Origin: Candidatus Berkelbacteria bacterium
GTDB lineage: Bacteria; Patescibacteriota; UBA1384; JACPKC01
Length of the DNA: 64,000 bases
Reading direction: 5' to 3'
Assembly (NCBI GenBank): GCA_016198415.1
Contig: JACQIO010000016.1
Coordinates: forward strand, 6,084-70,083
The notes below the pieces were generated by a model. The model had not been told where the DNA came from, ran no database searches, and saw nothing but the letters and a program-made list of their open reading frames with translations. A program made the position numbers and the translations under genes. Within the stretch, counting starts at the first letter, position 1. Each line of letters begins with the position of its first letter. Below, in pieces: positions 2,015 to 27,363 of the stretch.

Positions 2015-2775
2015 TCACCACCCCACCTACACACCGGAAGTGTAGGTTGGGTGGTGTTATAATGCGGGCATGGCAGTCCGGCACGAATCGATCATTACCG
2101 GCGAGGTCTATCACGTCTTTAATCGTGGCGTTGAGAAGCGAGATCTGTTTATTGACGATGTCGATCGTCAGCACTTTCTCGATGTCCTCAGCTTCTACCT
2201 AGACGAAGTTCAGGCAACCCGCTTCTCATTTCTCACCACAAAGCAGCGACAAAGAATGCTGCAGAAAATGCCCACGCATCCGCGCGTTGAGATCTTGGCC
2301 TACTGCCTGATGGGCAACCACTTCCACCTGATCATCCGCCAGTTGGGCGACGAGGGGATTCGGCGATTTCTCCACCGGGCGCTGAACAGCTACGCTCGAT
2401 ACTTCAACACCCGATACGAGCGAGTCGGTGCGCTCTTCCAGGGTCGATTTCGTGCTGTCCGGGTGACGAGTGATGCCCAGCTTCTTCACCTGATCCGTTA
2501 CCTTCATCTCAACCCATACGTGAGCCATCTTGTGGAGACGCTCGACTCGTACACGTGGAGCTCTCACCCCCTCTATGCTGCCCAACGAGAGACACGACTC
2601 GTCCGCATCACTCAAGGCATGAGTTTCTTTGACAATGACCCAGAGCGATACCGGAAGTTCCTTGAGGATTATCAGGAGTACGCACGTTCGTTGCATCTCC
2701 TCCGGGACATCGCCGAGCAAAGCCGCTGATTTCACACCACCACCCTTTCACTCCGGAAGTGTAGGTGGTGTGGTG
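2015..2775 (+). mobile_element. IS200/IS605-family-like minimal element: Y1 (HUH) transposase gene flanked by subterminal hairpins
   Basis: Left hairpin CACCACCCCACCTACAC-ACCGGAA-GTGTAGGTTGGGTGGTG (2015-2055), right hairpin region with the same CCGGAAGTGTAGGTGGTGTGGTG core (2733-2775), both start with TTTCAC(C). Extended -10 (TGtTATAAT 2054-2062) immediately before ATG 2070 suggests a leaderless transcript. Confidence 0.55.
2070..2729 (+). CDS. IS200-like / REP-associated tyrosine transposase (Y1 HUH transposase, COG1943/RAYT-like)
   Basis: 219 aa. N-terminal YHVFNRG, HUH motif LMGNHFHLII, catalytic-Tyr region SYARYFNTRYERVGALFQGRF typical of Transposase_17/RAYT proteins. Confidence 0.85.
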   Translation: MAVRHESIITGEVYHVFNRGVEKRDLFIDDVDRQHFLDVLSFYLDEVQATRFSFLTTKQRQRMLQKMPTHPRVEILAYCLMGNHFHLIIRQLGDEGIRRFLHRALNSYARYFNTRYERVGALFQGRFRAVRVTSDAQLLHLIRYLHLNPYVSHLVETLDSYTWSSHPLYAAQRETRLVRITQGMSFFDNDPERYRKFLEDYQEYARSLHLLRDIAEQSR

Positions 2776-2791
2776 AGGGGTTAGGGTGGGC

Positions 2792-2820
2792 TTGACAGAT
2801 GCCACATCCTGGTGTATCAT
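2792..2820 (+). promoter_or_regulatory. Near-consensus sigma70 promoter TTGACA-N17-TATCAT
   Basis: TTGACA 2792-2797, 17-nt spacer, TATCAT 2815-2820, directly after the IS200-like right end, pointing into an ORF-free region. Confidence 0.5.
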
Positions 2821-2826
2821 CTCGCT

Positions 2827-3526
2827 GTTCCTGGCGCTTCAATCACATGGTTCCTCTTCGCGCCGGGGACGTTCACAACAAAGATGGAGGCGGGCTGGGA
2901 TGCGCACCCCTAGCCACCACGCCTCCTCGTTCCGGCCCTTGTTGGTCGGACGAAAGCCTGGTGCGCACCCTGGGTCCGGTGAGCGTTTGACGCTCCAAGC
3001 CGTACCCAAGGTTCATGGCCTCGCCCTTGCGCCGGTTCGAACCCGGCTGCCACTCATTTGGTTTGTCGGGCGAGGCAAACCGGAGGCGGTGATCTGACCA
3101 GCGATCCGGGCTGGTTAGGGAGATCAAGATCATCGCTGATGCGGGAGCGTCGTGCCGAGGGCTGGGCCTCGGCACTGTCACTGGATTCCCGGAAGAACTG
3201 GGTCCAGGATGCTCCGGGACGGAGAGAGCTGCGCTGGTGGTTGACTCCCACCTAAGCCAACTCGGCTGCTCTCCTCCTATCCCACCCGTCACCCCCACTC
3301 GCGGGACGCGTGCCAGGCCTTCGGGTCTGGACCCACGAGCGGGGCTTGCAGGCCGCACTGCGTGGCCACCCACGAAGACCTCCACTTCCCCCACCGAAGC
3401 GCGCGATGGGGCCCCGGGATCACTCGGCGGAGGCACTCATGAGGAGTCGGCGGGGTGCGTTGCACCCACCCGGGGCACCACCCCGTCGACCTCCTCCCAC
3501 AAAAAGCGCCGTAGGGCGCACACACC
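2827..3526 (+). ncRNA. Candidate non-coding transcript or decayed gene remnant (no credible ORF on either strand)
   Basis: About 0.9 kb between tnpA and the next gene. Only short Arg/Pro/Gly-rich overlapping ORFs. Consensus promoter upstream, canonical T-arm-like hairpin GCCGGTTCGAACCCGGC at 3031-3047, GC hairpin near the 3' end. Confidence 0.2.
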
Positions 3527-3560
3527 GGGCCGGCTCATCGCGAGCCGGCCCTTCCTCATG
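3527..3560 (+). terminator. Terminator-like GC hairpin GGGCCGGCTC-ATCGC-GAGCCGGCCC followed by TTCCTCAT
   Basis: Perfect 10-bp stem seen directly. Weak U-tract, as usual in a GC-rich genome. Confidence 0.3.
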
Positions 3561-3570
3561 TCATCACCAA

Positions 3571-3599
3571 TTGACAACCGCCGCGCCTTCAGGTATGGT
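3571..3599 (+). promoter_or_regulatory. sigma70 promoter TTGACA-N17-TATGGT
   Basis: TTGACA 3571-3576, TATGGT 3594-3599. SD GAGGAG precedes ATG 3710. Confidence 0.5.
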
Positions 3600-3709
3600 G
3601 ACGCGTTCTTGCACCAGAACAATTCGGACAACGAAACGCTCCTTTTGGGGCGCGTTCTGCGTGCAGACAGATCACACGCGGGCGTGGCCCGCATGAGGAG
3701 AAAGTCAAA

Positions 3710-5278
3710 ATGTTCAAAGTTCTGTTCGTTCAAACCATCGGCCTCGTCATGACCCTCGGCCTCGCTGGGCTGGCGCTCGGGAGCCTCCGGCTCCTCTGGG
3801 CAGCGCACCGGGACAATGGGTCCTACTCGTCCCGAACGCCGTGTTGGCCGGAGCGCCGGACCTGGTGGCTGCGGGGTGCCAGTTGCATCGTGGCTGCCTG
3901 GAGTGCGTACGCACTGGGGAGGATCTTGGCGCCAGACACCTGGCTCTGGTTCTTCCTGGTCACGTACACGACGACCTGGCTGACGCTCTCTACGCACCTC
4001 AGCCGGACGATGTGGCGGACCAACTCCCGTCAGCCGCGGATCCATCGCCTCTCATGGGGTGTGGCGATCTTCGCACTGATGGGTGGCACCATGACCGTCC
4101 TCGCGACCACTTGGTCCCTGTTCATGGTGGCGGCAATCTTTGTTGCCCTGCCACGGATCTGGGAGTGGTGGTCCGAGTGGTTCCAGGATGTGCGGTACCG
4201 CCGGCACCGGCCGGTCGCCGCGCTCGGCATGGGGCTGGCGATCCTCGTCGGCCTGAGCTGGATCACAGTCATGAGCGGGCGCGTTGCCATCGAAGCCCTC
4301 TTGGGGACGAAGGTTATCGTGCGGGCCGGCGGAGTCGTTACGCCGCCGCCACCTCCGCCGCCGGTGGCGCTTCCCAAGTGGATCCTCGGCAAAGGGGTCT
4401 GGATCGTCAACCTTGACCACGCCGAGGGCGGGGACCTCGAGGCCATCGTGGCGAAGGCCAAGAAGTACCACGCCGACCACCTCCTGGTGAAGCTCTTTGA
4501 CTCAGAGTGGGATGAGGGGCCGTGGATCCCGTTTCACGGCGCCGACATCCGCCCGGTGGCCAAGGAGCTCATCGCGCTCGCCCACGCCGAGGGCATCAAG
4601 GTCTACCTCTGGGGGTACGTCTACGGCAAGCGGACCCAGTGGGAGATCGGGCTCGTCCGGGAGTGCCTCATGCTCAACCCCGACGGCTTTGTCTATGACG
4701 CCGAGGGGGAGTGCAAGAAGGAGGGCCGAACCGAGAACCTGGAGGAGATCTGCCGGTCGGTTACGGAATGGCGGGACAAGTACCGGCCGAACGCACTGCT
4801 CGGGTTCTCGTCGTTCGACGGGACGATCATGCACGCCGACGGAGGGTTCCCGTACGCGGTCTTCGACCGCTACTGCGAGGTCTTCATCCCCCAGTGTTAC
4901 TGGAAGGATGATGCCACCGGCACTCCAGCCGATCGTCTCAGCTGGGCGTCGGAGCAGTGGGTCGCCTCGGCGGCCAAGTACCGTGCGCGGGGGGCAGGCA
5001 AGTCGTTCGATCGAATCCTCCCGGCTGGCCACGCCTACGACCCCAGACTCAACAGTAACCTTCGGGAGATCCCGTATGAGGAGGTCGTGGACTTCCTTGA
5101 ACGGGCCGAAGGCTTCTGGGGGGTGTCGCTGTACACCTACGAGTTTATGGGGCCGGAGCAGTGGCAGGGCTTCCGGGACGGGCCCGGGTCGCTCCGGGAG
5201 AAGGCCGAGCGGTACGGCGAGGAGCTGCGCAAGGCGCGGGAGGCTAAGCGTAGCGGCAAGAAGGGAAAGGAGGGCTGA
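3710..5278 (+). CDS. Polytopic membrane protein with poly-Pro linker and C-terminal TIM-barrel glycoside-hydrolase-like domain (GHL/DUF4015-type guess), Lys-rich tail
   Basis: 522 aa. About 6 N-terminal hydrophobic helices, PPPPPPP linker, then WIVNLDHAEGGD...IKVYLWGYVYG...LNPDGFVYDAEGE. Good SD. Domain assignment by similarity only. Confidence 0.8.
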   Translation: MFKVLFVQTIGLVMTLGLAGLALGSLRLLWAAHRDNGSYSSRTPCWPERRTWWLRGASCIVAAWSAYALGRILAPDTWLWFFLVTYTTTWLTLSTHLSRTMWRTNSRQPRIHRLSWGVAIFALMGGTMTVLATTWSLFMVAAIFVALPRIWEWWSEWFQDVRYRRHRPVAALGMGLAILVGLSWITVMSGRVAIEALLGTKVIVRAGGVVTPPPPPPPVALPKWILGKGVWIVNLDHAEGGDLEAIVAKAKKYHADHLLVKLFDSEWDEGPWIPFHGADIRPVAKELIALAHAEGIKVYLWGYVYGKRTQWEIGLVRECLMLNPDGFVYDAEGECKKEGRTENLEEICRSVTEWRDKYRPNALLGFSSFDGTIMHADGGFPYAVFDRYCEVFIPQCYWKDDATGTPADRLSWASEQWVASAAKYRARGAGKSFDRILPAGHAYDPRLNSNLREIPYEEVVDFLERAEGFWGVSLYTYEFMGPEQWQGFRDGPGSLREKAERYGEELRKAREAKRSGKKGKEG

Positions 5279-5282
5279 GCAG

Positions 5283-5326
5283 AGGTCCGTGGGGAGCAAT
5301 CCCCCGGACCTCTTTCCTTTTTGGGC
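5283..5326 (+). terminator. Intrinsic terminator GAGGTCCGTGGGG-agcaat-CCCCCGGACCTC + TTTCCTTTTTGGG
   Basis: 12-bp GC stem followed by T-rich tract immediately after stop of 3710..5278. Confidence 0.65.
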
Positions 5327-5553
5327 TGCTTCTGGTCGTAACGACCTCGGCGCGTCTACAAATGACCAATAATCAAACTCCAATAACCAGACAAGTTCCA
5401 ATATCCAATGTTCAGTTTGGTTATTCGGACCTTCGGTTATTGTCTGATCATTGAGGCTTGGTCATTGGTCATTGCCTCGCGCACCCTGCTCCTATTGAAC
5501 CACCCCTGTTGGCAGCGTCGAATGGGTCTGCGGCCGGGTGAACATCAAGGCAT

Positions 5554-5582
5554 TGACAGGAGGAGAGGTACGTGCTAGACTC
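5554..5582 (+). promoter_or_regulatory. sigma70 promoter TTGACA-N17-TAGACT
   Basis: TTGACAGG 5554-5561 and TAGACT 5577-5582, about 250 nt upstream of ATG 5834 (long leader). Confidence 0.35.
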
Positions 5583-5833
5583 CCGAGTTCGCTGCTGGTA
5601 CAGTGCGTTCAGAGGGACGCACGTCCAGTTGCTTTCCACCAAGTAGAACGTCATTCCACTCTGGTCCGGCTAGGAGCTGGGAGAGTTGTCTGCGAGCCTT
5701 GCTCAACGACTTTGCCCCTCCTTCCCAGCTGTCCCCTGAGGATACTCGAGCTCGCTCCGCTTGCCGGAGAGGGTACGTGGCCTGGCTGGACCAGAGGGAA
5801 TGACACTTAAGGAGGGGATCGTGGGGCACGACT

Positions 5834-8548
5834 ATGACCAACGAAACTCTCCGAAGTGGCACCCAATCTCCTGAAACGAACCGGCCGGACAACGCGCCGG
5901 CTTTTGGCGTTGTGGGTGAGCGACTGGCCGCCCTCGGCGAGCGCATCCGCTCGGGGTTCGCAGAGGGTCGCGAGCAGGCGATGGCCGCCGCCCGCGGGCG
6001 GATTGCGGCTGCTCCCACCCTGGAAGCGGCTGCGGCCGAGGGGCTCAAGGATCGCCTGACGCCAGAACTCAAGGCCGCCCAAGAGCGCGATGGCACTGCC
6101 TGGTACAACCAAGCCCGCGCCTGGCTCAAGCATCCCGAGGTTCGCAAGGCCCGGACTGGTCTCTCCATCGCTGCCACCGGCGCCGGCTTCTTTGGGCTGG
6201 CCACCGCTAACCTGCCGCTCGTGGCCGGTGCGGTGGCGGCTCGCTTTGGCCTGGCCGCCCTCGGTTCCTACAACCTGGCCCAAGAAATCCAACTCAACCG
6301 CGATCTCCATAAGGACACTAGCCGCGAACTCACGGGGCTCGAAAAGCTCGTCGGCGTCTTCACGCGGCGTGGCCAGGGCCTCGATGAGGCAACTGTGGCC
6401 GGGATGAGTCGCGATCAAGCCCAGGCCCGGATTGCCGCGACGGTCGCGACGGCCCGGGCGGCCGATATCACCGATGCCCGTGCCATCAGCCAGCAAGCCG
6501 CCTTTGATCAACTGCTCGTCAAGTCGACGCTCAGTGCCCAGACCGAGAAGCGCTTGGAACAACTTCGCAGCGCAATGGCAGCTCGCCTGATTCGAGCTGA
6601 GCGGGGCTTGGGCAAGCGCGCTGCCCTCGATGAGGCCGAGGTGACTGCCTACGCGGTGACTCATCAAGCGGCGATCGATCAAGCCATCGCCGAGCGCGAG
6701 GCCAAGCGGGGCGAGTGGGAGCAGACGAACGGTCAGACGCTCAGCAAGACGAGCGCGCTTGTTCGCGGTCACGCTCAAGCACGTGCCGACGTTGCCACGG
6801 TCCTGGCCGGTGCTGAGATCCAGCTGCCAGCCGCCCGCACGCAGGCCAAGCACCGAACGATCCTCTCCGGTCTGATTGGTCTGGGGATGGGCGCCCTGTC
6901 TCTCTTCATGGGTGGCGTAAGTAAGCTGGAGTCCGCCAAGGACGCAGCTGAGGCCGCTGCCACTGGCGTGACCCCGGACGTGGCCGGCCCGCCTGATGCC
7001 ACAACTTTGGGAGAGACGCCAGTGCCCCGACCCGGTTTGCCGATCCCAGCGCCTGCAGCGGCGGCGCCGGCACATGAGGCTGGTGGTCTTGGCCGTGAGG
7101 CGCTCCAGAACGCTGGGACGGCCGCGCGCGCCATCGCCAGCGGGCGTGAGCACTTCCATGCCAATCTTGTCGACACGCTCCGGGCCGGCCTGGAGCAGGC
7201 TGACTACCAAGGCACCACCCAGCCAATCCACGCGGCGGTCAATGCCCTGGTCCACAACCACCTGACCGACGGCTTTGATCTGTCCGTGGTCAACACGGAG
7301 AATGGCCAGTCGCTCGCGCAGTACCTCCTCTACCACGCGGACGAGCTGGCTGACCCAGCCAATGAGGCCAAGCTCTACGATCTCCTGTCCCATGACTTCT
7401 CAACCGCTGAGCTGGGTGAGCGGATGGCGCTGGCCGTGACTGGTGAGGTGGACGCGTCCGCGCTCGAATCAACCGTTGGGGCTGCCGCAACTGCCGCTGA
7501 GGGCGCGGCCGGAGCGCAGGAAGTCTTTGTCAACGAGCACGTCCAGGCTGCTCTCGATGCCCTTGAGTCCACAGAGACGCGGGGCGTGGTCACGCCGGAC
7601 CAGGTGGCCCCGCTCAACCGATTGATTCTCAAGAGTGAGGATGTCCGTGAGGCGTTGGCCCTCGAGGGTCCCCACGGTGGTGAGACTAATCAGATTACGA
7701 ACGTAGAGAGACTCCACGCAGGCCAGGCCGCTCCTGCGGTGACACACCTGAGCGACGGTCGGCTCCGACTCATCTACATGTTAGACGGTCGGGATATGTC
7801 TCTTGAGCCGGTGGCCGATCCGCAGAAGCTGACGGTCACCCTCGACTCAGCCGGCCACGTTGTCAAGGCCGAGAGCGAGCTCCTGGAGCACGGGAATTGG
7901 ATGAAGGATCCGGAAACGTATCCAGAGCCGGTTCCAGCAGCGCCGGCTGAGCCCGTGCCCGCACCAGAGGCCGTCAAGCCTGGCAACTTCACGGTTGTTG
8001 AGGATGGTCCAACCCAGTCACCGGTAACTGTGGCCACGTCGCCCAGCTTCACGGTCGTAGAGGATCGGGCGACCCTGCCTGTCGAGTCTGCACCAGCGTC
8101 AGTGACCCCAGTTCCAGCCGAGGCACCCCCGCAAATCGCTGCCCCAGCCGAACCGACCGAGCCAGAGGCACCGACTGCTCCGGTGACGACCGAGGAAGTC
8201 AAGGCGACGCCGATTCCTACCGAGGCGCCACCGGCTGAGGCAGTCGTCGAAGAGACCGAGCAGCCGAACCGCACGGTCCTTGACCCCAACCAACCCTGGC
8301 TGACGCTCCCGCCTGAGGGATCCGAAGAGACAGCTGAGGTGGAACCAGAAGCGGCCAAGCCAGAGGAGTCGACTGAGGACACGCCGAACATTACTGCAAC
8401 ACCCACTGATGTAGCCACGCCAGTTCCCACAGAGGAACCACCGGCCGAAGCGTCGGAACCAGTGGTTCGGGAGTCACCTCTCGCCAAGCCGTCGGATGGT
8501 GAGGTGGCACCCACGCCAACTGGCAAGTACGAGGCGGTTGGTATCTAA
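5834..8548 (+). CDS. Large (904 aa) Ala-rich membrane/surface protein with Pro/Glu/Thr/Val-rich repetitive C-terminal half
   Basis: N-terminal region with hydrophobic segments (LSIAATGAGFFGLATANLPLVAGAVAARFGLAALG). C-terminal PEPVPAAPAEPVPAPE... with internal direct repeat NFTVVEDGPTQSPVTVATSPSFTVVEDRATLPV. SD AAGGAGGGG upstream. The 528-aa antisense ORF is rejected. Confidence 0.75.
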   Translation: MTNETLRSGTQSPETNRPDNAPAFGVVGERLAALGERIRSGFAEGREQAMAAARGRIAAAPTLEAAAAEGLKDRLTPELKAAQERDGTAWYNQARAWLKHPEVRKARTGLSIAATGAGFFGLATANLPLVAGAVAARFGLAALGSYNLAQEIQLNRDLHKDTSRELTGLEKLVGVFTRRGQGLDEATVAGMSRDQAQARIAATVATARAADITDARAISQQAAFDQLLVKSTLSAQTEKRLEQLRSAMAARLIRAERGLGKRAALDEAEVTAYAVTHQAAIDQAIAEREAKRGEWEQTNGQTLSKTSALVRGHAQARADVATVLAGAEIQLPAARTQAKHRTILSGLIGLGMGALSLFMGGVSKLESAKDAAEAAATGVTPDVAGPPDATTLGETPVPRPGLPIPAPAAAAPAHEAGGLGREALQNAGTAARAIASGREHFHANLVDTLRAGLEQADYQGTTQPIHAAVNALVHNHLTDGFDLSVVNTENGQSLAQYLLYHADELADPANEAKLYDLLSHDFSTAELGERMALAVTGEVDASALESTVGAAATAAEGAAGAQEVFVNEHVQAALDALESTETRGVVTPDQVAPLNRLILKSEDVREALALEGPHGGETNQITNVERLHAGQAAPAVTHLSDGRLRLIYMLDGRDMSLEPVADPQKLTVTLDSAGHVVKAESELLEHGNWMKDPETYPEPVPAAPAEPVPAPEAVKPGNFTVVEDGPTQSPVTVATSPSFTVVEDRATLPVESAPASVTPVPAEAPPQIAAPAEPTEPEAPTAPVTTEEVKATPIPTEAPPAEAVVEETEQPNRTVLDPNQPWLTLPPEGSEETAEVEPEAAKPEESTEDTPNITATPTDVATPVPTEEPPAEASEPVVRESPLAKPSDGEVAPTPTGKYEAVGI

Positions 8549-8694: not shown

Positions 8695-9621
8695 ATGAAG
8701 AGGTATTTTTCAACGGTGACGGTGACGGTGACGGTGCTGCTCGCGATGGCGATGGTTCTGGTCTTGCTGGGTACGAACCCGGTGCAGGCCAAGGAGACGC
8801 CGCCGCGGAGTGGGTTCTGGGACTTCAAGTGGATCCTCGGGGGCTGGGACGACTGGAAGAAGGTCGGCGTCAAGGCGATGCTCCTGGTCGGCGTGCCGGC
8901 CGAGTATCACCCGGACGACAGCTGGAACTTCGACGACCCGAACACCGGGTTGCCGCAGGGTCTCCAGCTCCGCCTGATCACGGTCGGCGACTCGGTCCGC
9001 AAGGAGATCGATGGCGATGGGGCTGAGTTCGTGGTCCACATGAACAACGACGGCGCCCCGGGCTGGACCGAGGTTGGTCGGTGGCCGACCACCTTCGTGG
9101 ACACCACGATCGATCTCAGCGGTCGCAAGCCGGGTCCGCTGATCATCCGCGCCTACCTGGATGCGGGTGATCACGACGAGGACTCGTACGAGTTGCTCGG
9201 ACGGTGGATCATCCCCCGGGAACAGGTGTTCCGGGCGATGGGCATGGAACCGCCGGCTCGGCCGGGGGATGCCATCCTGCCTCAGGGAACCCTGACCGGC
9301 ACCGTGCTGGTCACCCTGGAAGGTGGGAGCATCGCCGAGGGCTGGGTCTCGGTCTACTGGGACGACCCCAACACCCCGGCTGCCGACTGGCTGAAGATCA
9401 TTAGTCGGCCCGTCCTGGGTCCGACCTACTTCGAACAGGTGCCGGCTGGTCGCGTGACCATCCGGATCTACGACCCGACCGGCACCCAGTGGGAAGTCCC
9501 TGGGCCGGAAGCGCTCCTGTTCCCCGAACTTCGCCCTGGGGGGATGGCCGAGATTCGGATTCGCAGGGTGAAGACGACCGGCGGCCCGACCGCCAGCACA
9601 GGAGGAGGTGGGGTGCGATGA
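8695..9621 (+). CDS. Secreted hypothetical protein (signal peptide)
   Basis: MKRYFSTVTVTVTVLLAMAMVLVLLGTNPVQA signal peptide. SD GGAGGGAG before ATG 8695. (GGTGAC)x3.5 tandem repeat encodes the TVTVTV stretch. Confidence 0.75.
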   Translation: MKRYFSTVTVTVTVLLAMAMVLVLLGTNPVQAKETPPRSGFWDFKWILGGWDDWKKVGVKAMLLVGVPAEYHPDDSWNFDDPNTGLPQGLQLRLITVGDSVRKEIDGDGAEFVVHMNNDGAPGWTEVGRWPTTFVDTTIDLSGRKPGPLIIRAYLDAGDHDEDSYELLGRWIIPREQVFRAMGMEPPARPGDAILPQGTLTGTVLVTLEGGSIAEGWVSVYWDDPNTPAADWLKIISRPVLGPTYFEQVPAGRVTIRIYDPTGTQWEVPGPEALLFPELRPGGMAEIRIRRVKTTGGPTASTGGGGVR

Positions 9622-10622
9622 ACGAGCACCTGAAGAAGACGGCCAGGCGCCCAATGTCGAACGGGACGCTCTGGCTGGTGCTGGTGGTCGCGCTCTGCGC
9701 GCTCTCGCCGGCTTTCGCGTTCGACGCGTCTAACGTCTGGTACTGGGAGAACTACGGCGGGGACAAGCGGAACCCGCTCGGAGTTCGTTCCTGGAGCCAG
9801 TACCGCGACTGGTTCATCTCGGCGGCTGGGCAGAACGATCTCCGGCGGGTCAACCTCCTGCCGGAGGTGGCCGAGAAGATGCTGGAGATGGTCAACCAGC
9901 GGCGCTGGGACGGCCGGGTCTACACCTGGCCGGACGGCTGGTCGGCGCGCCTGTCCAAGGCGGTGGTCAAGAAGGGTGATCGGTACGACGCCCTCACCTT
10001 CAACCCCGCCGGCGTGACGGAGGTGAACGTCGAGGTCGCGTGGAAGGGCCAGAGCTCCGAGACGGTCTACCGCGTGGAGGTCTGGCAACCCGACGGCATC
10101 GGGTGGTCGCTGGACACGTTCCCCAAGTGCGTGAACGGGGGCGTGTTCAGCATCCTGACCATCAAGCCGCCGCCTCCGCCGGTGATTCCGCCCCGGACGC
10201 CGATTCCGCCGGAGACGCCGCCGCCCACTTACCGCTACCGGCCGGTGTCGGTGCCGGGGATCGCCCTCAACTACGGCGAGCACCGGTCCGCGGAGGTGAA
10301 GGGCAACCTGGGTGCCTTCCTGGGGGTCCTGGGTAAGTGGCTGGGAAAGCCGGTCACCAACTTGAGCTTCGCGACGGGTGCCGTGACCGGTGCTAACGCG
10401 TACGCCCAGGGCGGGCAGGTGGGAGCGGTGTCGGCGGTCACGGGACCGATCGACGTCCGCAACGCCCAGTTCCAGGGCCAGGGGCAAGGCCAGCTGACCA
10501 TCGTCCCCATCGTGAACAACGTTGGGGACGGGAATGCTGGCTCGGCGGCTGGGGCTGGGACGGTGACCGCGCCGGTCATCCAGGCCCCGGGCGGGGCCGG
10601 CCCCATCGAGATCAACGACTAA
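9618..10622 (+). CDS. Secreted hypothetical protein with Pro-rich linker and C-terminal QGQGQG-TIVPIVNN module
   Basis: Start ATGA overlap with upstream gene. Signal peptide MNEHLKKTARRPMSNGTLWLVLVVALCALSPAFA. IKPPPPPVIPPRTPIPPETPPP linker. C-terminal NAQFQGQGQGQLTIVPIVNNVGDGNAGSAAGAGTVTAPVIQ. Confidence 0.75.
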   Translation: MNEHLKKTARRPMSNGTLWLVLVVALCALSPAFAFDASNVWYWENYGGDKRNPLGVRSWSQYRDWFISAAGQNDLRRVNLLPEVAEKMLEMVNQRRWDGRVYTWPDGWSARLSKAVVKKGDRYDALTFNPAGVTEVNVEVAWKGQSSETVYRVEVWQPDGIGWSLDTFPKCVNGGVFSILTIKPPPPPVIPPRTPIPPETPPPTYRYRPVSVPGIALNYGEHRSAEVKGNLGAFLGVLGKWLGKPVTNLSFATGAVTGANAYAQGGQVGAVSAVTGPIDVRNAQFQGQGQGQLTIVPIVNNVGDGNAGSAAGAGTVTAPVIQAPGGAGPIEIND

Positions 10623-10796
10623 CCAGCCGGCTCACTCGCGCTTCGGCGCGGATGGGCTCGGCTCTCTGGAGGGAAGGAGGGGAAACCCCACTCCACTGCG
10701 CAAGCGGTGGGGTGGGGGAGTACCTCCTCTGCTTGAACACTCGAGCCGAGGCGCGTACTCCGCGAGACAGAGATTACAACCCGAGGAGGACAACCC

Positions 10797-11399
10797 ATGA
10801 GCAAGTTGCTCACCCTGATCGCCGTTGTGCTGATGGCGATCCCGCAAGCGGCATTCGCGACGGAGGACGGCGTGCACGTCGCGGTCCTGCAGGCCGAGGA
10901 GCTGGCCACGGAGGAGAACAACAACTCCGAGGTCGGGCAGACCCAGACGGTGGATGACGGCGTTCGCTGGGTCGCGATCGAGCCGCCGCAGGTGGAGCTG
11001 CCGGCGCCCCGCATCGAGATGCATCCGGCGACCCTGACCCCCTGGGTCAAGCGGGTCAGCGGCTGCCCGCACTGCGAGCACTGCCAGGCCGAGTCCCAGC
11101 AGCGGACCGACCACGGTCAGGTCCCGAACACCGAGTCGGTGTCGACGCTGCTCGAGCGGTTCATGGGCCGGCCGATCACGCTTCCCGGATCGGGATCGGA
11201 GCAGCAGAACCCGGTCAACATCCAGCTGCTCAACGTGCAGACACTGCCCCCGACGGTTCACCAGCTGGAGCCGACCACATTCCAGCCCACCGAGGAGCAG
11301 ATGCTGCGGGCCCGGTTCCTCTGGGAGGAGCGCGTCCGGCAAGGACTCGAGTCCGACCCTGCCGGCATCGTCGACGGAGGGAGGTACAAGAGCGAGTAG
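10797..11399 (+). CDS. Secreted small hypothetical protein (CPHCEHC motif)
   Basis: Signal peptide MSKLLTLIAVVLMAIPQAAFA. 200 aa. No recognisable domain. Confidence 0.7.
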   Translation: MSKLLTLIAVVLMAIPQAAFATEDGVHVAVLQAEELATEENNNSEVGQTQTVDDGVRWVAIEPPQVELPAPRIEMHPATLTPWVKRVSGCPHCEHCQAESQQRTDHGQVPNTESVSTLLERFMGRPITLPGSGSEQQNPVNIQLLNVQTLPPTVHQLEPTTFQPTEEQMLRARFLWEERVRQGLESDPAGIVDGGRYKSE

Positions 11400-11619
11400 A
11401 ACTGGGGGTCTGACGGCCTGAACCACCACGGGGTGTGTTCGGGCCCTGCCTTCCCACGTCAACACCCGCGTGACCGTCACCGTTTCGATCGCAACTCGAG
11501 AGCGAGTGAGACTGAGCGGTTGGCACAAGGGGGACCGTTGACTGGGGAAGTATAGGAACAGGAGCGGCGTCGAGCGGTCGGTCTCGACCGATAGTGCAAC
11601 GGAAGGGAGGTGAGACAAT

Positions 11620-12519
11620 ATGCAAAAGATTCTTTCTCTGCTCGGAGTGGCGGGCCTCTTGATGGTAGCAGCTGGACCATCAACTGCTGCTGCCCAAGAT
11701 GCCTTTGCCGACCCGATCTTTGCTGGTTTCAACCTCAACTGGGTCAGCAATGCTCAGTTCCAGGGCCAGGGACAAGGTCAGCAAACGATTGTTCCCATTG
11801 TCAATAACAACGGGACCAACAACGCTGGGTCTGCCTCGGGTGCCGGGAACGTGACCGTTCCGGTCATCCAGGTGACGCCGGCGCCAACTGCCGGGACGCC
11901 TGTTTCAGGCGGTTCTGGCACTGGTACGTGCAATGCCAACGCCAGTTGCGCAACCGTTCCGGTCACGATGGACCCGGCCAGGCCGGCGATCATTGTGAAC
12001 GGTGGTGACGCGAATGCGGCGGCTGCGGCCTCGGCGGCCACAGCCGGCAACGGTGGTGGTGGCGAGAACGGTGACGGCGGTTCGTCCGCTGCGTCGAGCT
12101 CGTCTGCTGCCAACGCTGGTGGCAATGAGAACGGCGCCGGTGGTGCCAATGCGGCTGCGGCTGCATCGGCTGCTTCAACTGGTGGCGGTAAGGGTGGCAA
12201 CGGTGGCGGGAGCGCCGCTGCCTCAAGTGCTGCCAATGCCGGTGGCAAGGACGGGGCGAGTGCGGCGGCTGCGGCCGCGGCTGGCCCCAATGCCAACGCG
12301 GAAGCCAGGGCCGGTGACGGCAAGGCGGAAGCTAAGGCTGAGTCCAAGAGCGAACCAACCAAGGTTGCTCTGGCCAAGGGCGCGCTCCCTAAGGAGCTCC
12401 CCAAGGCTGGTGCCGAGGCTGGTGCGCTGGCCGTTGGTCTGACCACGCTGACAGGCGCTGGTTCAGCCCTCCTGGCTCGCAAGCGTAAGCTTGACCTGGC
12501 TGACCTCATCGTCGGCTAA
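11620..12519 (+). CDS. Secreted Ala/Gly/Asn-rich surface protein with N-terminal QGQGQG-TIVPIVNN module and C-terminal LPxAG-type sortase-like sorting signal
   Basis: Signal peptide MQKILSLLGVAGLLMVAAGPSTAAA. NAQFQGQGQGQQTIVPIVNNNGTNNAGSASGAGNVTVPVIQ. C-terminus LPKAG + hydrophobic stretch + RKRK tail. Confidence 0.75.
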   Translation: MQKILSLLGVAGLLMVAAGPSTAAAQDAFADPIFAGFNLNWVSNAQFQGQGQGQQTIVPIVNNNGTNNAGSASGAGNVTVPVIQVTPAPTAGTPVSGGSGTGTCNANASCATVPVTMDPARPAIIVNGGDANAAAAASAATAGNGGGGENGDGGSSAASSSSAANAGGNENGAGGANAAAAASAASTGGGKGGNGGGSAAASSAANAGGKDGASAAAAAAAGPNANAEARAGDGKAEAKAESKSEPTKVALAKGALPKELPKAGAEAGALAVGLTTLTGAGSALLARKRKLDLADLIVG

Positions 12520-12556
12520 GGACGCTCTGGTTGGCTGGTACCAGCTGACTGGAGGC

Positions 12557-12590
12557 AAAGAGACCCCGCCCGGGGTCTCTTTGTGTTGGT
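12557..12590 (+). terminator. Intrinsic terminator AAAGAGACCCCG-CC-CGGGGTCTCTTT + GTGTTGG
   Basis: Perfect palindromic GC stem flanked by A and T tracts after stop of 11620..12519. Could act bidirectionally. Confidence 0.55.
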
Positions 12591-12745
12591 ATCACCTTAG
12601 TCCTCCCCTTGCCAACCCCTCCTCCTGACACGCTCATTTCAACACGTCACTTCCTCAAAGACACTCTTCGTTCCTGACGGCCGAAGTTTCTTTGGGAGCG
12701 TGATGCGTCGAAATGGGGATGGTATCCGCCTTTGGCGGATGGATT

Positions 12746-12800
12746 GGTATCTGTGTGATCTGCGAGTCGCCAGGGAGGCGACCTATGTATCTGTGGTGTG
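12746..12800 (-). repeat. Box-hairpin-box intergenic repeat, copy A (minus orientation)
   Basis: RC reads CTCACACCACAGATACATAGG - GTCGCC..GGCGAC hairpin - CAGATCACACAGATACC. Homologous to copies at 19516-19575 and 43484-43543. Confidence 0.5.
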
Positions 12801-12812
12801 AGCTACCCCTGC

Positions 12813-12841
12813 TTGACAGAGCACCGAGAACGCGGTACCCT
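12813..12841 (+). promoter_or_regulatory. Promoter candidate CTTGACAGAG-N17-TACCCT (weak -10)
   Basis: Shares the CTTGACAG -35 context with promoters at 2792 and 13597. Points into the ORF-poor region. Confidence 0.25.
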
Positions 12842-13064
12842 CCGTCCAGCTGAACGCAGCTTTACCTTTGTGAGAGCAACCCACCGGACCTGATGTTGTC
12901 GGCACGGCCGGTAACCAGTGAAGGGGACGTCAGGTCCCGGTGGGTTCACACGAATTGACGGCTGGCTGTCGCTGGGCTCGGGCCGTGAGGCCGTAGGCCC
13001 CGGGGCTTACACCGAGCACGCCGTGGTCTCAGGAGCCACGGATGGCGCCGAGCTAGCCGTCTCA

Positions 13065-13106
13065 ACAACTGGATCCCGCCGGATTAACCCCCCCGACCGG
13101 CGGGAT
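13065..13106. repeat. Perfect 14-bp inverted repeat hairpin CTGGATCCCGCCGG-attaacccccccga-CCGGCGGGATCCAG
   Basis: Seen directly. Lies inside the ORF-poor region 12830-13500. Confidence 0.5.
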
Positions 13107-13511
13107 CCAGCACCAGAGCCCTGCCCTGGTCCACCTTCCCCCAACCAGGGTGGGGTTCCCAGAGCGCCGGACCCGTGCCGGGTCTGGGCGTTGGTGCGAC
13201 CTCTCGCCCGAGCGAGAGGTATCCGGTGAGGAGAACAGAGGTGGGACGGACTCCGTGGCAGAGTTCCTCCGCTCCCAAAGAGCGTGGGCCAACCACCACG
13301 GTGACACCTCGGCACGGCGGAGCCGCGCAGTGCCAGTTGGGGGATTCACATCGCTGACGAACGCCGAGCCCTGGCTCCGGATCGCGTCGGCCTTGCCCCT
13401 AGCCGTCCAGTTTTTCTTGAGCCTGAACGTCCCACCCCTCCCGGGACGTTCACCGCTCGACCCCCTGAAGAGTCCGCCCACGTGCGGACTCTTCCTCTGT
13501 CATGCGGGCAA

Positions 13512-13586
13512 GGGTGAACGTGAATGGTGAAAGGAGAAGGCAGCGTGACGCTTTGCGCTGTACCTTTCACTTTTCACGTTTCACCC
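13512..13586. repeat. GTGAAAG/C heptad-repeat hairpin element, copy 1
   Basis: Forward arm GGGTGAACGTGAATGGTGAAAGGAGAAGG, 20-nt palindromic spacer, reverse arm TACCTTTCACTTTTCACGTTTCACCC. Confidence 0.6.
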
Positions 13587-13596
13587 AAGGTACCCC

Positions 13597-13626
13597 TTGA
13601 CAGGTGGTCGGCATCTGCAGTATCTT
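13597..13626 (+). promoter_or_regulatory. sigma70 promoter TTGACA-N18-TATCTT (homologous to the promoter at 2792)
   Basis: CTTGACAGGTG...ATCTGCAGTATCTT aligns with CTTGACAGATG...ATCCTGGTGTATCAT at 2791-2820. Confidence 0.4.
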
Positions 13627-13632
13627 GCCCCA

Positions 13633-14184
13633 GCAACCTAACAAGTTGACAGAAATCCCTGGGCGAGTGTCTGGTGGGCTGAGGCTCGCCAACATGACGC
13701 AGCGAGGCACCTCGCCTGCGCCCGTTCGAACCTGCTGCAGAAGAATGGAGAGGCGAGTAGACGTTTATCAGCCTCGCTCAGGGATTCACATAACAAGTTC
13801 ATCTGGCTAGCCCCAGGGCCCTGTGGGCATCGGAGACGTCCCTGACCTCGGTCAGGACCGGTGCGCGCATCCTCCTTGAGAAGCGGAGGGGTGAAAGGCT
13901 CGGCTTCCAACAAAGCCCGTCGTGTGATCTCCGGTTCAGCCGCTTCGGCTTGGTGATCACCTTCGGACTTGGCCGATCTTGCCAGATGAACCCTCTTGAA
14001 CGTTCGGTTGGTGGGCGAGGAGTCGTACGCGACCTCTCCCACCGGCCCAACGCCAGCGGCCGGGCCGCGAGCTCCTACCTGGTCCACCTTCCCTAACCAG
14101 CGGAGTCGCGCGGTGCGGCTGCCTCAACGCAGACGGACGACGAGGGCCCCTGTGCCCCCAGAGCATCTCGCGTCCATCTGCCCC
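13633..14184 (+). ncRNA. Candidate non-coding transcript between a promoter and a strong terminator (no credible ORF)
   Basis: About 580 nt. Contains GGAGGGGTGAAAGGCTCGGCTTCCA and GAATCCCGGCC, which loosely resemble RNase P CR-I/CR-V, but the match is too weak to call. Confidence 0.2.
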
Positions 14185-14220
14185 GAATCCCGGCCCTCAA
14201 AGCCGGGATTCACCTTTTCC
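14185..14220 (+). terminator. Intrinsic terminator GAATCCCGGC-cctcaaa-GCCGGGATTC + ACCTTTTCC
   Basis: Perfect 10-bp stem then T-tract, followed by a half-arm of the TTTCAC repeat (CGTTTCACCC). Confidence 0.6.
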
Positions 14221-14243
14221 GTTTCACCCGCTACAGTACGCTT

Positions 14244-19641: not shown

Positions 19642-19717
19642 CGGCGCGTAGCGCAGCCAGGGAGCGCACTACGTTGGGACGTGGAGGACGTGGGTTCAAA
19701 TCCCATCGCGCCGGCCA
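19642..19717 (+). tRNA. tRNA-Pro (anticodon GGG), CCA encoded. Hand-fold gives a 6-nt anticodon loop
   Basis: Acceptor CGGCGCG/CGCGCCG, D-arm GCGC-AGCCAGGGA-GCGC, anticodon arm CTACG-TTGGGA-CGTGG, T-arm GTGGG-TTCAAAT-CCCAT, discriminator G, CCA. Confidence 0.75.
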
Positions 19718-21780: not shown

Positions 21781-24261
21781 TTGACGGGTTTTGCATTTCT
21801 CCTCCTGATACTGGGACTGGCTGGGGCTGGTGGCTGGCTCTGGCTTGATCGTTATCGAGAACGATTGGGGAGTGAGCGCGCCCGAGACCTCGTCCTCTTG
21901 AAGGTCCTAGTCCCCAAGGAGTCTGGTGAGTCGCAAGACGAGACCGGAAAGCGAGACTTCCGGGAAACGATGTCGGTGGCGGAGCAGTTCCTGGCCAGCT
22001 TTGCCTCGCTCCACAAAGAGGGGCTCCTGGAGTGGATTCCCGGTCAGCCCACCATTAGCTTGGAGTTCGTGGCCAAGAACGGGCTCCTGACGTTCTACAT
22101 TGCTGTCCCCAAGGCGTTCCGAGAGCTGGCCGAGCGGCAGCTTCACAGCTACTACCCCTACGCCCAGATCGAGCCGAGCGAAGCGTTCCGCATCTTTTCC
22201 GAGACGGTCTATCCGGAGGGCATGTACGTCAAAACCAAGAAGACGTACGTCCTCCCTATCAAAACCTACAAGGAGCTCGAGAGCGATCCGCTGAACGCCA
22301 TCACCAACGCCTTCAGCAAGCTCCCCGATGGAGTCAATGCCGGGTTCCAGCTCCTCCTCCGGCCCACCTCGGGAGCCTGGCGGGACAAGACCGTCCACGC
22401 CGCCAAATCGGTGGCGCAAGGCAAGAATCTGACCAAATCGCACTGGGCGCTTCAGGCGCTCAATGCGGTTGTGTCCTCGCTTCGCAGTGGCGGAGCCGCG
22501 GCTGAGGAGAAAGAGAAGGAGAAGGAGACCGTTCGCCTGACGCCCATCCAAGAAGAAGTGATGAAGGGAATCCAGGAGAAGGGGAGTAAGGTCGGTTTCT
22601 CGGCCCAGCTGCGGGTGATTGTCCTGTCTCCCACCTCCACCAACGAGGCCAAGATCGCCCTGGACAACATCGCCTCGTCGCTCGGCCAGTACACCGCGCC
22701 CGAGATGAACTACCTGAAGAAAGTTGGGGCGACGGACGCCAAGCAGTTTGCCACCGATTTCATCCTCCGCCGGTTCCGAGAGCGCGCCCCGTCGTCCATC
22801 CTCAACACCGAGGAGCTGGCTTCCCTCTACCACGTGCCCAACGAGTTCATTGAGACGCCCAACATTGAGTGGCTGGCCGCTCGGACCATGGCGCCCCCAT
22901 CTAACTTACCGCCGGAGGACCCCAACGCCGTCATCCTCGGCAAGAGCGTCTACCGAGGTGAGGAGCGGCCGGTCAGGATCAAGCAGGACGATCGGCGCCG
23001 TCACCTCTACTCGATTGGAAAAACTGGCGTGGGCAAGACGACGCTCTTCATCCACCAGATCGAACAGGACATCAAGGCGGGCCGAGGGGTGGCGTACCTG
23101 GATCCCAATGGGGACGCCATCGAGTCGATTCTGACGATCATTCCCAAGGAGCGGGCCGAGGACGTCGTCCTCTTTGATCCGGCCGACCTGGAGCGGCCGA
23201 TGGGACTCAACGTCCTTGAGTGGAAGCGGCTGGAAGACCGCGACTTCCTGGTGGCCGAGTGGCTGGAGATCTTCTACAAGCTCTTTGATCCCAATCGAAC
23301 CGGCATGGTCGGTCCGCAGTTTGAGCACTGGGGGCGGAACGCCTCGCTCTCCGTCATGGCCCGGCCCGGTGGGGGGACGCTCATCGATATCCCACGGCTC
23401 TTCACGGACGATGCGTTCCGGGACGACACGCTCCGGTACGTGACCGATCCGGTCGTCAAGGCATTCTGGGAGCAACAGATGGCCAAGACCGCTGACTTCC
23501 ATAAGTCGGAGATGTACAACTACTTCATCAGTAAGTTCGGTCGTTTCATGACGAACGATCTCATTCGCAACATCATTGGCCAGACCAAGAGCGCCTTCGA
23601 CATTCGCGAGTTGATGGATGGCCATAAGATCTTCCTGGTCAACTTGAGTAAGGGGAAGATTGGTGAGACCAACTCTCACCTGCTGGGTATGATCTTAGTG
23701 GCCAAGATGCAGGTGGCGGCCTTTCAGCGCGCCGACACGCCCGAGGCAGATCGGAAAGACTTCTACCTCTACGTGGATGAGTTCCAGAACTTCACCACCG
23801 ACACGTTCAAGACGATTCTCTCTGAGGCACGGAAGTACCGCCTGAACCTCAACATCACCAACCAGTACATTGCCCAGTTGCCAGAAGAGATTCGAGACGC
23901 TGTCATCGGCAACGCCGGGACCCTCATCTCCATGCGCGTGGGCGCGGCTGACGCTGAGTTTCTCGAGAAGGAGTTCCCCAACGTGACCGAGCACGACCTC
24001 GTCAACCTGCCCTTTGCGAGCTCCTACACCAAGCTCCTGATTGACGGGACACCCACCAAGCCGTTCTCGATGATGACCATCAAGACGGCCACTCCGCCGA
24101 ATGCGGAACTGGGAGCGGCCATCCGTGAGCTCTCGCGCCTCAAGTATGGGAAGGAGAAGCGGCAGGTTGAGCAGGAGATGGAACAGCGCTACCAAGCCAA
24201 GAATCCCTTTGCACCAGACAATCTTCACATTCCGGACGTGCCGCCGGGACGGGAAGGGTAG
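21781..24261 (+). CDS. Membrane-anchored P-loop ATPase, type IV coupling protein (VirD4/TraG/TrwB)-like, paralog 1
   Basis: TTG start, one N-terminal TM helix. Walker A SIGKTGVGKTTL, VAYLDPNGD (as TrwB VIVDPNGD), FDPADLERPMGLNVLE, Walker B DFYLYVDEFQNF, NQYIAQLPEE. Confidence 0.8.
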   Translation: MTGFAFLLLILGLAGAGGWLWLDRYRERLGSERARDLVLLKVLVPKESGESQDETGKRDFRETMSVAEQFLASFASLHKEGLLEWIPGQPTISLEFVAKNGLLTFYIAVPKAFRELAERQLHSYYPYAQIEPSEAFRIFSETVYPEGMYVKTKKTYVLPIKTYKELESDPLNAITNAFSKLPDGVNAGFQLLLRPTSGAWRDKTVHAAKSVAQGKNLTKSHWALQALNAVVSSLRSGGAAAEEKEKEKETVRLTPIQEEVMKGIQEKGSKVGFSAQLRVIVLSPTSTNEAKIALDNIASSLGQYTAPEMNYLKKVGATDAKQFATDFILRRFRERAPSSILNTEELASLYHVPNEFIETPNIEWLAARTMAPPSNLPPEDPNAVILGKSVYRGEERPVRIKQDDRRRHLYSIGKTGVGKTTLFIHQIEQDIKAGRGVAYLDPNGDAIESILTIIPKERAEDVVLFDPADLERPMGLNVLEWKRLEDRDFLVAEWLEIFYKLFDPNRTGMVGPQFEHWGRNASLSVMARPGGGTLIDIPRLFTDDAFRDDTLRYVTDPVVKAFWEQQMAKTADFHKSEMYNYFISKFGRFMTNDLIRNIIGQTKSAFDIRELMDGHKIFLVNLSKGKIGETNSHLLGMILVAKMQVAAFQRADTPEADRKDFYLYVDEFQNFTTDTFKTILSEARKYRLNLNITNQYIAQLPEEIRDAVIGNAGTLISMRVGAADAEFLEKEFPNVTEHDLVNLPFASSYTKLLIDGTPTKPFSMMTIKTATPPNAELGAAIRELSRLKYGKEKRQVEQEMEQRYQAKNPFAPDNLHIPDVPPGREG

Positions 24262-27200: not shown

Positions 27201-27363
27201 AGCGCCACGATCGGTGTCGGCTGTACCAGCGCGACCAATCATCTCAGCAGAGGACATCCAGGCCCTGAGAGAAGCGGCCGGGGCTGAGCCGGAGGCGGAC
27301 CTCGGCACGCTCACTCCCGGTGAAGAGATCTCGCTTCACGATGACCGGGACGTCACACCCTAG
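24268..27363 (+). CDS. Membrane-anchored P-loop ATPase, T4CP-like, paralog 2 with ~230-aa Pro/Arg/Gly/Ser-rich C-terminal tail
   Basis: Same motif set as paralog 1 (TIGKTGTGKSTL, VAVVDPHGQ, DFYLYVDEFQNF, NQYIAQMPE). SD GGGAGG before ATG 24268. Confidence 0.8.
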   Translation: MLTIILLLILAVAGWFGWRAFQQWRLARRAEEYAGWLGSQRSIILHVLVPKNNEKTPLAAEQFFAAIHGVFREGADFQEQISFELVSHDTFIHFYLHVPAHLKEFVEGQLYAQYPQIEIQEVEDYLTPLVPSQAMLGAELVQTKDPVYPILTFQNFTVDPLSGITAVLGNLGAGQQLYVQIVIKPVAESWQERGVKFVAAKRLGVPLKKPSGFVQLIGVASRVVVSILQTIFLPSGGGGEGAAEAAPAKEPDKRPELSAPEEAALKGIESKVTKLGYAVRIRLLAVASDPYTARSRIEAISGAFKQFNTNNLNGFRSAIVDQVEPFLHAMKAREFAGDGMILNTEELASLYHLPSVSVETPNMMWAGSKKGEPPANLPVAGRDDESDITFLGMTDFRNNRHKFGIKSKDRGLHMYTIGKTGTGKSTLLLNMVIDDIQKGKGVAVVDPHGQLIQDVLERLPPHRTNDVIYFNPADRDHPIGFNLFESVDPDLRNVVASGILSIFKKLWADSWGPRLEYILRNAILALMYYPDTTLLGINRLLTDPAYERRVIRKVTDPVVRDFFENEYDMYDPKFRREAIAPIQNKVGQFLSSSTIRNILGQPQSSFNMREVMDEGKILLLDLSIGRIGEDNASLLGSMLITKIQLAAMSRADIPEAERRDFYLYVDEFQNFATESFAVILSEARKYHLNLSLTNQYIAQMPEVVAKAIFGNVGTIISFRVGPSDAAGLAKEFEPVFESQDLINLDNYHIYVKMAIDGVTRPAFSSKTLPPMNVQPSRENYEKVVRVSRERYASPRVFVEQKIQDWADDVQVKQAQEWRRKIEEREQGSGGTPGTPPSPAGASQPRPEPRREPEYRNRNDFVKFVDDTKPTPSPAPRSVAPRPPAAPSGQGGRPSSNRDADRSRRSRGGRNRRGPAGSGGQGSGQAPSTGSRPSGPPRTRGPEQGSRPAPAALSPSQPQPAQPPKQEGSAEPIRPNPPPAPRSVSAVPARPIISAEDIQALREAAGAEPEADLGTLTPGEEISLHDDRDVTP

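Follow-up and report, generated by a model that had tools for sequence, protein, structure and literature searches.

Four consecutive plus-strand genes, here called G1 to G4, lie in a stretch of 64,000 nucleotides from contig JACQIO010000016.1 of a Candidatus Berkelbacteria bacterium, a member of the candidate phyla radiation (CPR). This whole stretch is referred to as the window, and positions are counted from its first nucleotide. The four genes encode predicted secreted proteins, and a short module that is shared by two of them, G2 and G4, probably joins these two proteins on the cell surface, as judged from their sequences. The genes and the features within them are listed below, with protein positions given in amino acids (aa).

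8695-9621, plus strand: G1, 308 aa, predicted secreted, the conserved first gene of the cluster (open reading frame, ribosome-binding site and leader).
8713-8736, plus strand: (ACGGTG)x4 tandem repeat encoding TVTVTVTV in the signal peptide of G1 (Tandem Repeats Finder: 4.0 copies, 100% matches).
9618-10622, plus strand: G2, 334 aa, predicted secreted (open reading frame and leader).
9720-10166, plus strand: globular N-terminal domain of G2, aa 35-183, modelled by AlphaFold2 as three helices followed by a beta sandwich or barrel.
10455-10583, plus strand: module copy in G2, aa 280-322, VRNAQFQGQGQGQLTIVPIVNNVGDGNAGSAAGAGTVTAPVIQ (BLASTP against G4, with coordinates from tblastn).
10797-11399, plus strand: G3, 200 aa, predicted secreted, with a CPHCEHC motif (open reading frame, ribosome-binding site and leader).
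11620-12519, plus strand: G4, 299 aa, with a leader, the module, an A/G/S/N-rich spacer and a putative C-terminal sorting signal (open reading frame and leader).
11743-11871, plus strand: module copy in G4, aa 42-84, VSNAQFQGQGQGQQTIVPIVNNNGTNNAGSASGAGNVTVPVIQ.
12385-12516, plus strand: putative sorting signal of G4, composed of LPKE-LPKAG (aa 256-264), a hydrophobic stretch (265-286), RKRK (287-290) and LDLADLIVG (291-299).

The gene cluster and its products

Each of the four genes is preceded by a GGAGG-type (Shine-Dalgarno) ribosome-binding site, and each product has a hydrophobic segment at its N-terminus with a small-x-small site after it. Cleavage sites were assigned by eye, without a prediction tool, at VQA/K, AFA/F, AFA/T and AAA/Q for G1 to G4, respectively. 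The stop codon of G1 and the start codon of G2 overlap in the sequence ATGA. Scans of G1 to G4 against Pfam and NCBIfam gave no family match, the exception being a sub-threshold match of G4 to Gram_pos_anchor. Coordinates, leaders and database negatives therefore agree with a preliminary description of this DNA, made from the sequence alone, which had reported four consecutive genes for secreted proteins without known domains. Sequence-profile searches of the PDB with the G1 and G2 families returned nothing under an expectation value (E) of 0.2. No paper on the G1, G2 and G4 families came up in literature searches on sortases or surface proteins of Berkelbacteria and on LPXTG in Patescibacteria, which yielded general articles on the CPR only. 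G1, G2 and G4 represent three new protein families without relatives in Pfam, NCBIfam or the PDB.

G2 is identical to the NCBI protein HY375_01710, a hypothetical protein of Candidatus Berkelbacteria bacterium. An exhaustive HMMER search of 1.84 billion representatives returned 15 matches, namely G2 itself and 14 relatives with 26-41% identity across the matched stretches, and three of the 15 (G2 and two relatives) bear the name Candidatus Berkelbacteria at NCBI. With so few matches and these three names, the G2 family appears to be rare and lineage-restricted. Word-indexed protein searches were ill-suited to this low-complexity family: a search with G2 recovered G2 only, a two-module profile yielded 29 candidates with none at E ≤ 10, and the family alignment A3 found only two proteins, as low-complexity words saturated the search. 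A contig scan for synteny seeded with PrfB gave only loci with 43-54% identical PrfB, none of which had the cluster, and a scan of Joint Genome Institute (JGI) metagenome contigs with alignment A7 gave 74 pattern matches and no relative.

Eight related contigs were compared with the window (L082-L084 and L086-L090, L085 being a duplicate of L084), and the window and these eight contigs are referred to as the nine genomes. In each of the eight, a G1 homologue is located immediately upstream of the G2 homologue and an architectural orthologue of G4 immediately downstream, so that the order G1-G2-G4 is found in 8/8. The reading frames of G1 and G2 overlap or lie no more than 15 nucleotides apart in all nine genomes. 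Wherever the related contigs include flanks, the cluster adjoins cysS and/or prfB. The full gene order is cysS-(small open reading frame)-G1-G2-G4-prfB-ybaB-pth-rplA-tmk-rplJ, with partial versions in four more contigs, while the longer contigs continue after rplJ with rplL-tgt and a TraG-like gene in an order that matches the window. As the same order is kept in contigs that span 35-60% GC, the arrangement appears to be old and vertically inherited. The cluster is probably a core envelope component of Berkelbacteria-like genomes, since it keeps its place in a conserved housekeeping neighbourhood across such widely differing base compositions.

The conserved unit consists of three genes (G1-G2-G4) and not four. 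The cluster had initially been described as one of four genes, which are all present in the window, but G3 has no counterpart in the eight related contigs: no homologue was detected by tblastn in L082-L087, and no gene is called between the G2 and G4 homologues in L088-L090. The gene recurs in a second, independent assembly of this sample by Logan (L001). G3 thus has the appearance of an insert specific to this lineage, placed between G2 and G4.

The orthologues of G1 share 20-30% identity, and the family has a length of about 270-310 aa with a conserved start (..PPxPGF..W(I/L)(L/F)GG..). A single-sequence AlphaFold2 model of G1 was all-beta and of poor quality, with a predicted local distance difference test (pLDDT) score of 49.5, and was unusable. 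The tandem repeat in the G1 leader, which had been noticed before, is an insertion relative to five aligned orthologues (alignment A4). Being in-frame and idiosyncratic to one leader, it looks incidental.

G2 is built from a leader, the globular N-terminal domain, a proline-rich linker, a conserved helix motif (G..L..LG.WLG.PVTN) and a G/A/S/Q-rich tail that carries the module at its end. The N-terminal domain, modelled from 14 sequences, forms a block with pLDDT values of 69-96 over residues ~41-170, and its invariant residues in alignment A3 include W43, R51, D74, C171 and N173. The best PDB folds for this domain are the SH3b cell-wall-targeting domains of ALE-1 and lysostaphin (1r77, 5leo), a weak match in Foldseek (E 0.04-0.05, probability 0.7-0.8, TM score 0.36). 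There was no SH3b match to the domain at the level of sequence or hidden Markov model (HMM), and a Foldseek comparison with viral structures gave no meaningful match.

A module shared by G2 and G4

The modules of G2 and G4 align by BLASTP over 43 aa with 35/43 residues identical (E 5e-10), which bears out the earlier observation of a module common to the C-terminus of G2 and the N-terminus of G4. A six-frame search of the window found these two copies only. Among the eight related contigs, seven have one to three copies in their G4 orthologue, while the G4 homologue of L083 has no recognisable copy, and the module region of G2 aligns with the tails of its orthologues. Alignment A5, which combines 18 module copies from seven contigs with two further tails of the G2 family, has the common core ..Q/N-rich..NVN....(V/I)V(V)NTGxGxAxGSAxxxGxQ.., which the module of the window, QGQGQGQxTIVPIVNNxGxxNAGSAxGAG, fits. 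A proline is conserved within the hydrophobic strand of the module (TIVPIV, NINPI, NINPV).

The two copies match each other within a genome. This was seen when the G2 tail of each genome was compared with each G4 by Smith-Waterman alignment and the scores were set against 500 composition-preserving shuffles. In eight of the nine genomes the best match of the G2 tail is the G4 of its own genome; the tail of the window scores 176 against its own G4 and no more than 70 against foreign ones. The own-genome score exceeds all 500 shuffles in 7/9 genomes (z 5.6-18), and the similarity is order-specific, with shuffle z values of 8-18 in six of the nine. A coincidence of low-complexity sequence, which the preliminary description had named as one outcome that would speak against its observation, does not account for a module that is present in orthologues and order-specific.

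At the nucleotide level, 19 of the 38 codons for identical residues differ synonymously between the two modules of the window (51-aa aligned region, nucleotide identity 69%), and the same holds for 51-65% of such codons in L084, L086 and L087. A longer alignment (205 columns) has a mean column identity of ~80%. The synonymous differences imply that there has been no fresh gene conversion and that the likeness is held at the protein level. By its sequence, the module is to be regarded as a tail that the G2 family has had at its C-terminus since its origin and as the unit that is repeated in the G4 family. The two co-diverge genome by genome, and the module is not the "shuffled" mobile domain that had been suggested earlier.

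The module could also be explained without any interaction, if the G2 tail and G4 were both low-complexity spacers spanning the wall and their likeness came from non-allelic gene conversion or slippage between neighbouring genes, together with an amino acid bias of the whole genome. The genes lie about 1 kb apart or less, the sequence is of low complexity, a GC content that ranges from 35 to 60% skews composition, and two genomes (L083 and L086) have a likeness that is compositional only or weak. We consider this explanation unlikely, however: the similarity depends on residue order and lies far above the shuffles in seven of the nine genomes, and about half or more of the identical-residue codons differ synonymously (50% in the window), so that any conversion must be old and the residues must have been kept since. 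The placement of the module (C-terminal in G2, N-terminal in G4) and its core VVNTGxG.A.GSA are moreover kept across very divergent genomes.

In the three G4 orthologues with three copies (L082 11094-11969; L086 5554-6507; L087 11182-12048), two cysteines occur in the last copy only. They are 16 positions apart and symmetric about the NTGSG turn (NV.C.T.VVNTGSG.A.GSC), which suggests a disulfide-stapled beta-hairpin nearest the wall anchor. On the minus strand of the window (41931-43005), a gene of the VKOR family (41931-42434) overlaps a DsbA/Thioredoxin_4 gene (42361-43005). The two genes represent extracytoplasmic disulfide machinery of the MdbA/VKOR type, which is reported to be typical of the CPR; in Actinomyces, such a VKOR/DsbA-type pairing has been connected with the assembly of sortase-dependent pili (PMC6744442). 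The pair in the window may matter for the cysteine pairs in the modules of G4 orthologues, and also for G3 with its CPHCEHC motif.

The putative sorting signal of G4

The leader of G4 (MQKILSLLGVAGLLMVAAGPSTAAA, followed by Q) is hydrophobic, as is characteristic of a Sec signal peptide, with its cleavage site read by eye. At the other end of the protein, LPKAG is followed by 22 mostly hydrophobic residues and RKRK, which corresponds to the hydrophobic stretch of about 20 residues and the basic cluster of sortase substrates. These two elements had been recognised before; the nine-residue extension LDLADLIVG that follows them (window 12490-12516), which is atypical, had not. Across the nine C-termini of the family, this extension occurs in the variants ..ADLIVG, ..KLIVG and ..AIENLA/M. 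G4 of the window matches PF00746 (Gram_pos_anchor) over residues 258-290 with 14.3 bits (E 0.039), under the cutoff of 20, and has no match to TIGR01167.

The orthologues are more informative. Their motifs are LPKTG in five cases and LPATG, LAKTG and LAKSG in one case each, in an otherwise identical layout. Three of the G4 homologues pass the TIGR01167 cutoff (L083, L086, L087) and two that of PF00746 (L083, L087). The motif L[PA]x[TAS]G occupies the same position in all nine G4 proteins, often preceded by a second LPK(E/Q), and the orthologues retain, in this order, a leader, copies of the module (apart from L083), a spacer, this motif, a hydrophobic stretch and a basic cluster. As most orthologues have LPKTG at this place and several pass the TIGR01167 or PF00746 cutoffs, the C-terminus of G4 can be read as a sortase-type signal. 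The threonine of LPXTG normally forms the acyl-enzyme. In the strict sense, G4 of the window does not belong to the LPXTG proteins, as it has alanine (codon GCT, 12406-12408) in place of the threonine at position 4 and scores under the cutoff, whereas orthologues do qualify. The preliminary description had proposed a sortase-type signal of an LPxAG kind; the sorting signal stands, but judging from the orthologues LPKAG is a derived LPKTG that differs by one base (GCT vs ACN) and not a separate class of signal.

In common with LPXTG substrates as defined by PF00746 and TIGR01167, G4 has a leader, a low-complexity region that would span the wall, an LPxTG-type motif, a hydrophobic stretch of about 20 residues and a basic cluster. 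It differs from them in the sub-cutoff LPKAG of the window, in the conserved extension of 9-15 residues and in the doubled LPK(E/Q)-LPKTG of many members.

This extension raises the alternative that G4 is a tail-anchored type I membrane protein and not a sortase substrate, with the extension (..ADLIVG / ..AIENLx) in the cytoplasm and the LPKTG-like motif vestigial or serving another role. The extension follows the basic cluster in 9/9 proteins, two genomes have decayed forms of the motif (LPKAG and LAKSG), and no sortase was seen in any flank examined. Set against this are the constant position of L[PA]x[TAS]G, often with its preceding LPK(E/Q), in nine otherwise low-complexity proteins, the orthologues that pass curated LPXTG HMM cutoffs (three for TIGR01167, two for PF00746) and the fact that sortases are common in the CPR (PMC6744442), which together make a membrane protein a distinctly improbable alternative.

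None of ~48 scanned open reading frames of the window matches a sortase family of Pfam, in line with what had been stated before, and no match to the TLxTC motif falls within a plausible sortase reading frame. G4 is also the only protein of the window with a C-terminus of the LPx[TA]G type. A pilin-type class C sortase is absent from the cluster and from the eight related loci. More than half of the genomes of the CPR encode members of a sortase family whose distribution is patchy outside Microgenomates (PMC6744442). Sortase-assembled pilins were considered and rejected, as only G4 bears a sorting signal and there is no sortase in the cluster or the eight related loci.

A proposed model for surface assembly

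Our reading, to which we give a little less than even credence, is that of a Berkelbacteria-specific and vertically inherited surface cluster in which a wall-anchored G4 stalk would hold G2, and with it G1, by homotypic pairing of the shared module. All proteins of the cluster would be exported by Sec, as their leaders suggest, and a sortase, by analogy with known substrates, would cleave G4 at LPK[T/A]G and link it to peptidoglycan. The low-complexity spacer of G4 would then span the wall and leave the N-terminal Q/N/G-rich module or modules exposed. G2, with the module at its C-terminus, would be co-produced with G1 from overlapping or closely adjacent reading frames. The modules of G2 and G4 would pair like with like, probably in the form of beta-hairpins, either stacked or extending one another's sheet. 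The globular head of G2, which may bind peptidoglycan, and G1 would thereby be tethered to the cell surface. Pairing of this kind would need matched sequence within a genome, and rapid drift of the module from one species to another would require parallel changes in both genes, which is the proposed reason for the co-divergence.

Several observations weigh against this model. In L083 the G2 tail and G4 resemble each other in composition alone (z 1.6), and in L086 the tail matches its own G4 weakly (z 3.3) and scores below the maximum of its row. Gene conversion at an earlier time, with purifying selection since then, would yield equal similarity within genomes. The tail of G2 is disordered in the AlphaFold2 monomer model (pLDDT ~30), and the resemblance of the G2 head to SH3b is not significant (E 0.04). 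On the side of G4, alanine replaces threonine in a motif of the window that scores under the HMM cutoffs, the basic cluster is followed in all nine proteins by an extension of 9-15 residues that is not typical of LPXTG signals, and neither the 64 kb of the window nor ~100 kb of flanking sequence from relatives contains a sortase gene.

A precedent for anchored and secreted copies of one domain exists in Streptomyces, where it has been proposed that the wall-anchored long chaplins serve as anchors or seeds for secreted short chaplins with a common domain (PMC8300730). Like the chaplins, with their long ChpA-C carrying a LAXTG anchor and their short ChpD-H, the cluster would combine a sortase-anchored protein that has copies of a ~40-aa module with a secreted partner that has the same module. 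Unlike the hydrophobic chaplin domain, the module described here is Q/N/G-rich; there are no rodlins, the host belongs to a CPR phylum, and G2 adds a globular head of ~150 aa and a proline-rich linker. Membership of the chaplins was rejected, as PF03777 has no match to G1-G4 at E ≤ 0.1 or to five G4 orthologues at E ≤ 1. Scaffoldins that rely on cohesin-dockerin pairs or on SLH anchoring are comparable in function to the proposed arrangement, in that repeated docking sites on the wall hold secreted proteins by a terminal docking module. They differ in using heterotypic folded domains, whereas one short low-complexity sequence is found on both partners here, and Pfam matches to cohesin, dockerin or SLH are absent from G1-G4 and from five G4 orthologues.

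The module also recalls curli (CsgA/CsgB), which share a Q/N- and G-rich strand-turn-strand unit with a turn resembling (N/Q)xGxG(N/D)xA and would also share the combination of a surface-attached nucleator with a secreted partner. In contrast to curli, CsgE, CsgF and CsgG are absent and the CPR host is monoderm. A relationship to curli was rejected, as there is no match to Curlin_rpt (PF07012; Sx5QxGxGNxAx3Q) and hhalign of A5 against CsgA R1-R5 gave a probability of 0.15%.

These likenesses bear on a further explanation, a functional amyloid or nucleated fibre. Wall-anchored G4 would act as the nucleator, comparable to CsgB or the long chaplins, and the modules of many G2 molecules would stack on it in register, forming a cross-beta fibre that carries the G2 heads on its outside. 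In favour of this, the Q/N/G-rich module contains a hydrophobic strand of short length and a turn of the form N-x-G-x-G (consensus of A5, ..QNVN....VVNTGxGxAxGSA..), its sequence is strongly matched within genomes as cross-seeding requires, up to three copies are stacked in G4 orthologues, the monomeric G2 tail is predicted to be disordered, and the chaplins offer a precedent (PMC8300730). On the other hand, each G2 has one module only, with a conserved proline inside its hydrophobic strand, no Curlin_rpt or chaplin domain of Pfam matches at E ≤ 1, the hhalign value against curli repeats is as low as stated above, and dedicated secretion or chaperone genes are not present. We therefore hold an amyloid to be doubtful. 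A related and equally speculative idea treats the module as a self-templating cross-beta "barcode": G4 would nucleate the in-register stacking of G2, the resulting fibre or lattice would display the heads of G2 and G1 in a species-specific manner, and the fast co-divergence of both copies would keep assembly strictly self-specific.

Flanking DNA and accessory genes

Upstream of G1, the window differs from its relatives. About 6.5 kb of lineage-specific DNA (2070-8548) separates cysS from G1, where the relatives have 0.4-1.1 kb. This interval holds an IS200/Y1 gene (REP-associated tyrosine transposase-like) at 2070-2729, an open reading frame of 522 aa at 3710-5278, which has no annotation and no counterpart in the related loci, and the following gene.

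5834-8548, plus strand: G0, 904 aa, no leader, two hydrophobic segments and a P/E/T/A-rich C-terminus.

In L088, which also has the best-scoring G2 homologue (P0002), a protein of 944 aa is encoded at the corresponding place before the G1 homologue, and G0 is weakly and collinearly homologous to it (191 aa, E 8e-8). The other related loci have no counterpart of G0. From this distribution, G0 is possibly an accessory gene of this sub-lineage only. L088 also carries a Y1 transposase that is 44% identical to that of the window, on the opposite side of its cluster.

Downstream, 1.7 kb of DNA with 62.5% GC lies between G4 and prfB (12520-14243). It contains no convincing open reading frame, promoter or terminator, has no Rfam match and shows no similarity to the reading frames found at that position in relatives. 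Further along, two tandem plus-strand genes (21781-24261 and 24268-27363; 826 and 1031 aa) have weak matches to TraG/VirD4/TrwB coupling proteins; the TraG-like position downstream of tgt is kept in relatives and holds a gene there that bears the label DUF8128. Beside the genes for tRNA-Glu and tRNA-Thr, the stretch 19642-19717 is called tRNA-??? by ARAGORN, with its anticodon shown as gg, and is scored as a tRNA by Rfam at 52 bits. A plus-strand gene at 59512-60933 encodes a protein of 473 aa in which a CBM96-like module occurs together with a Lamin Tail Domain, and which is likely another surface or secreted protein.

Implications for CPR cell surfaces

Attachment to other cells is the presumed way of life of CPR bacteria, and to our knowledge their surface proteins are almost entirely uncharacterised. 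Through the co-divergence of its module, the cluster offers a concrete hypothesis for the assembly of proteins without known domains on a CPR cell wall. It also defines a variant of the sorting signal in which L[PA]x[TAS]G is combined with an extension, likewise conserved, at the C-terminus. The cluster would represent a sortase-anchored system with anchored and secreted copies of one module, in a phylum in which such systems are undescribed. If this is true, it would be an independent example of the principle known from chaplins, in which an anchored copy holds a secreted copy. If the barcode idea were true, the cluster would be a new sortase-anchored functional amyloid or homotypic docking system, the first described for the CPR/Patescibacteria, and its fibre could belong to the surface layer or to the host-attachment apparatus of these episymbionts.

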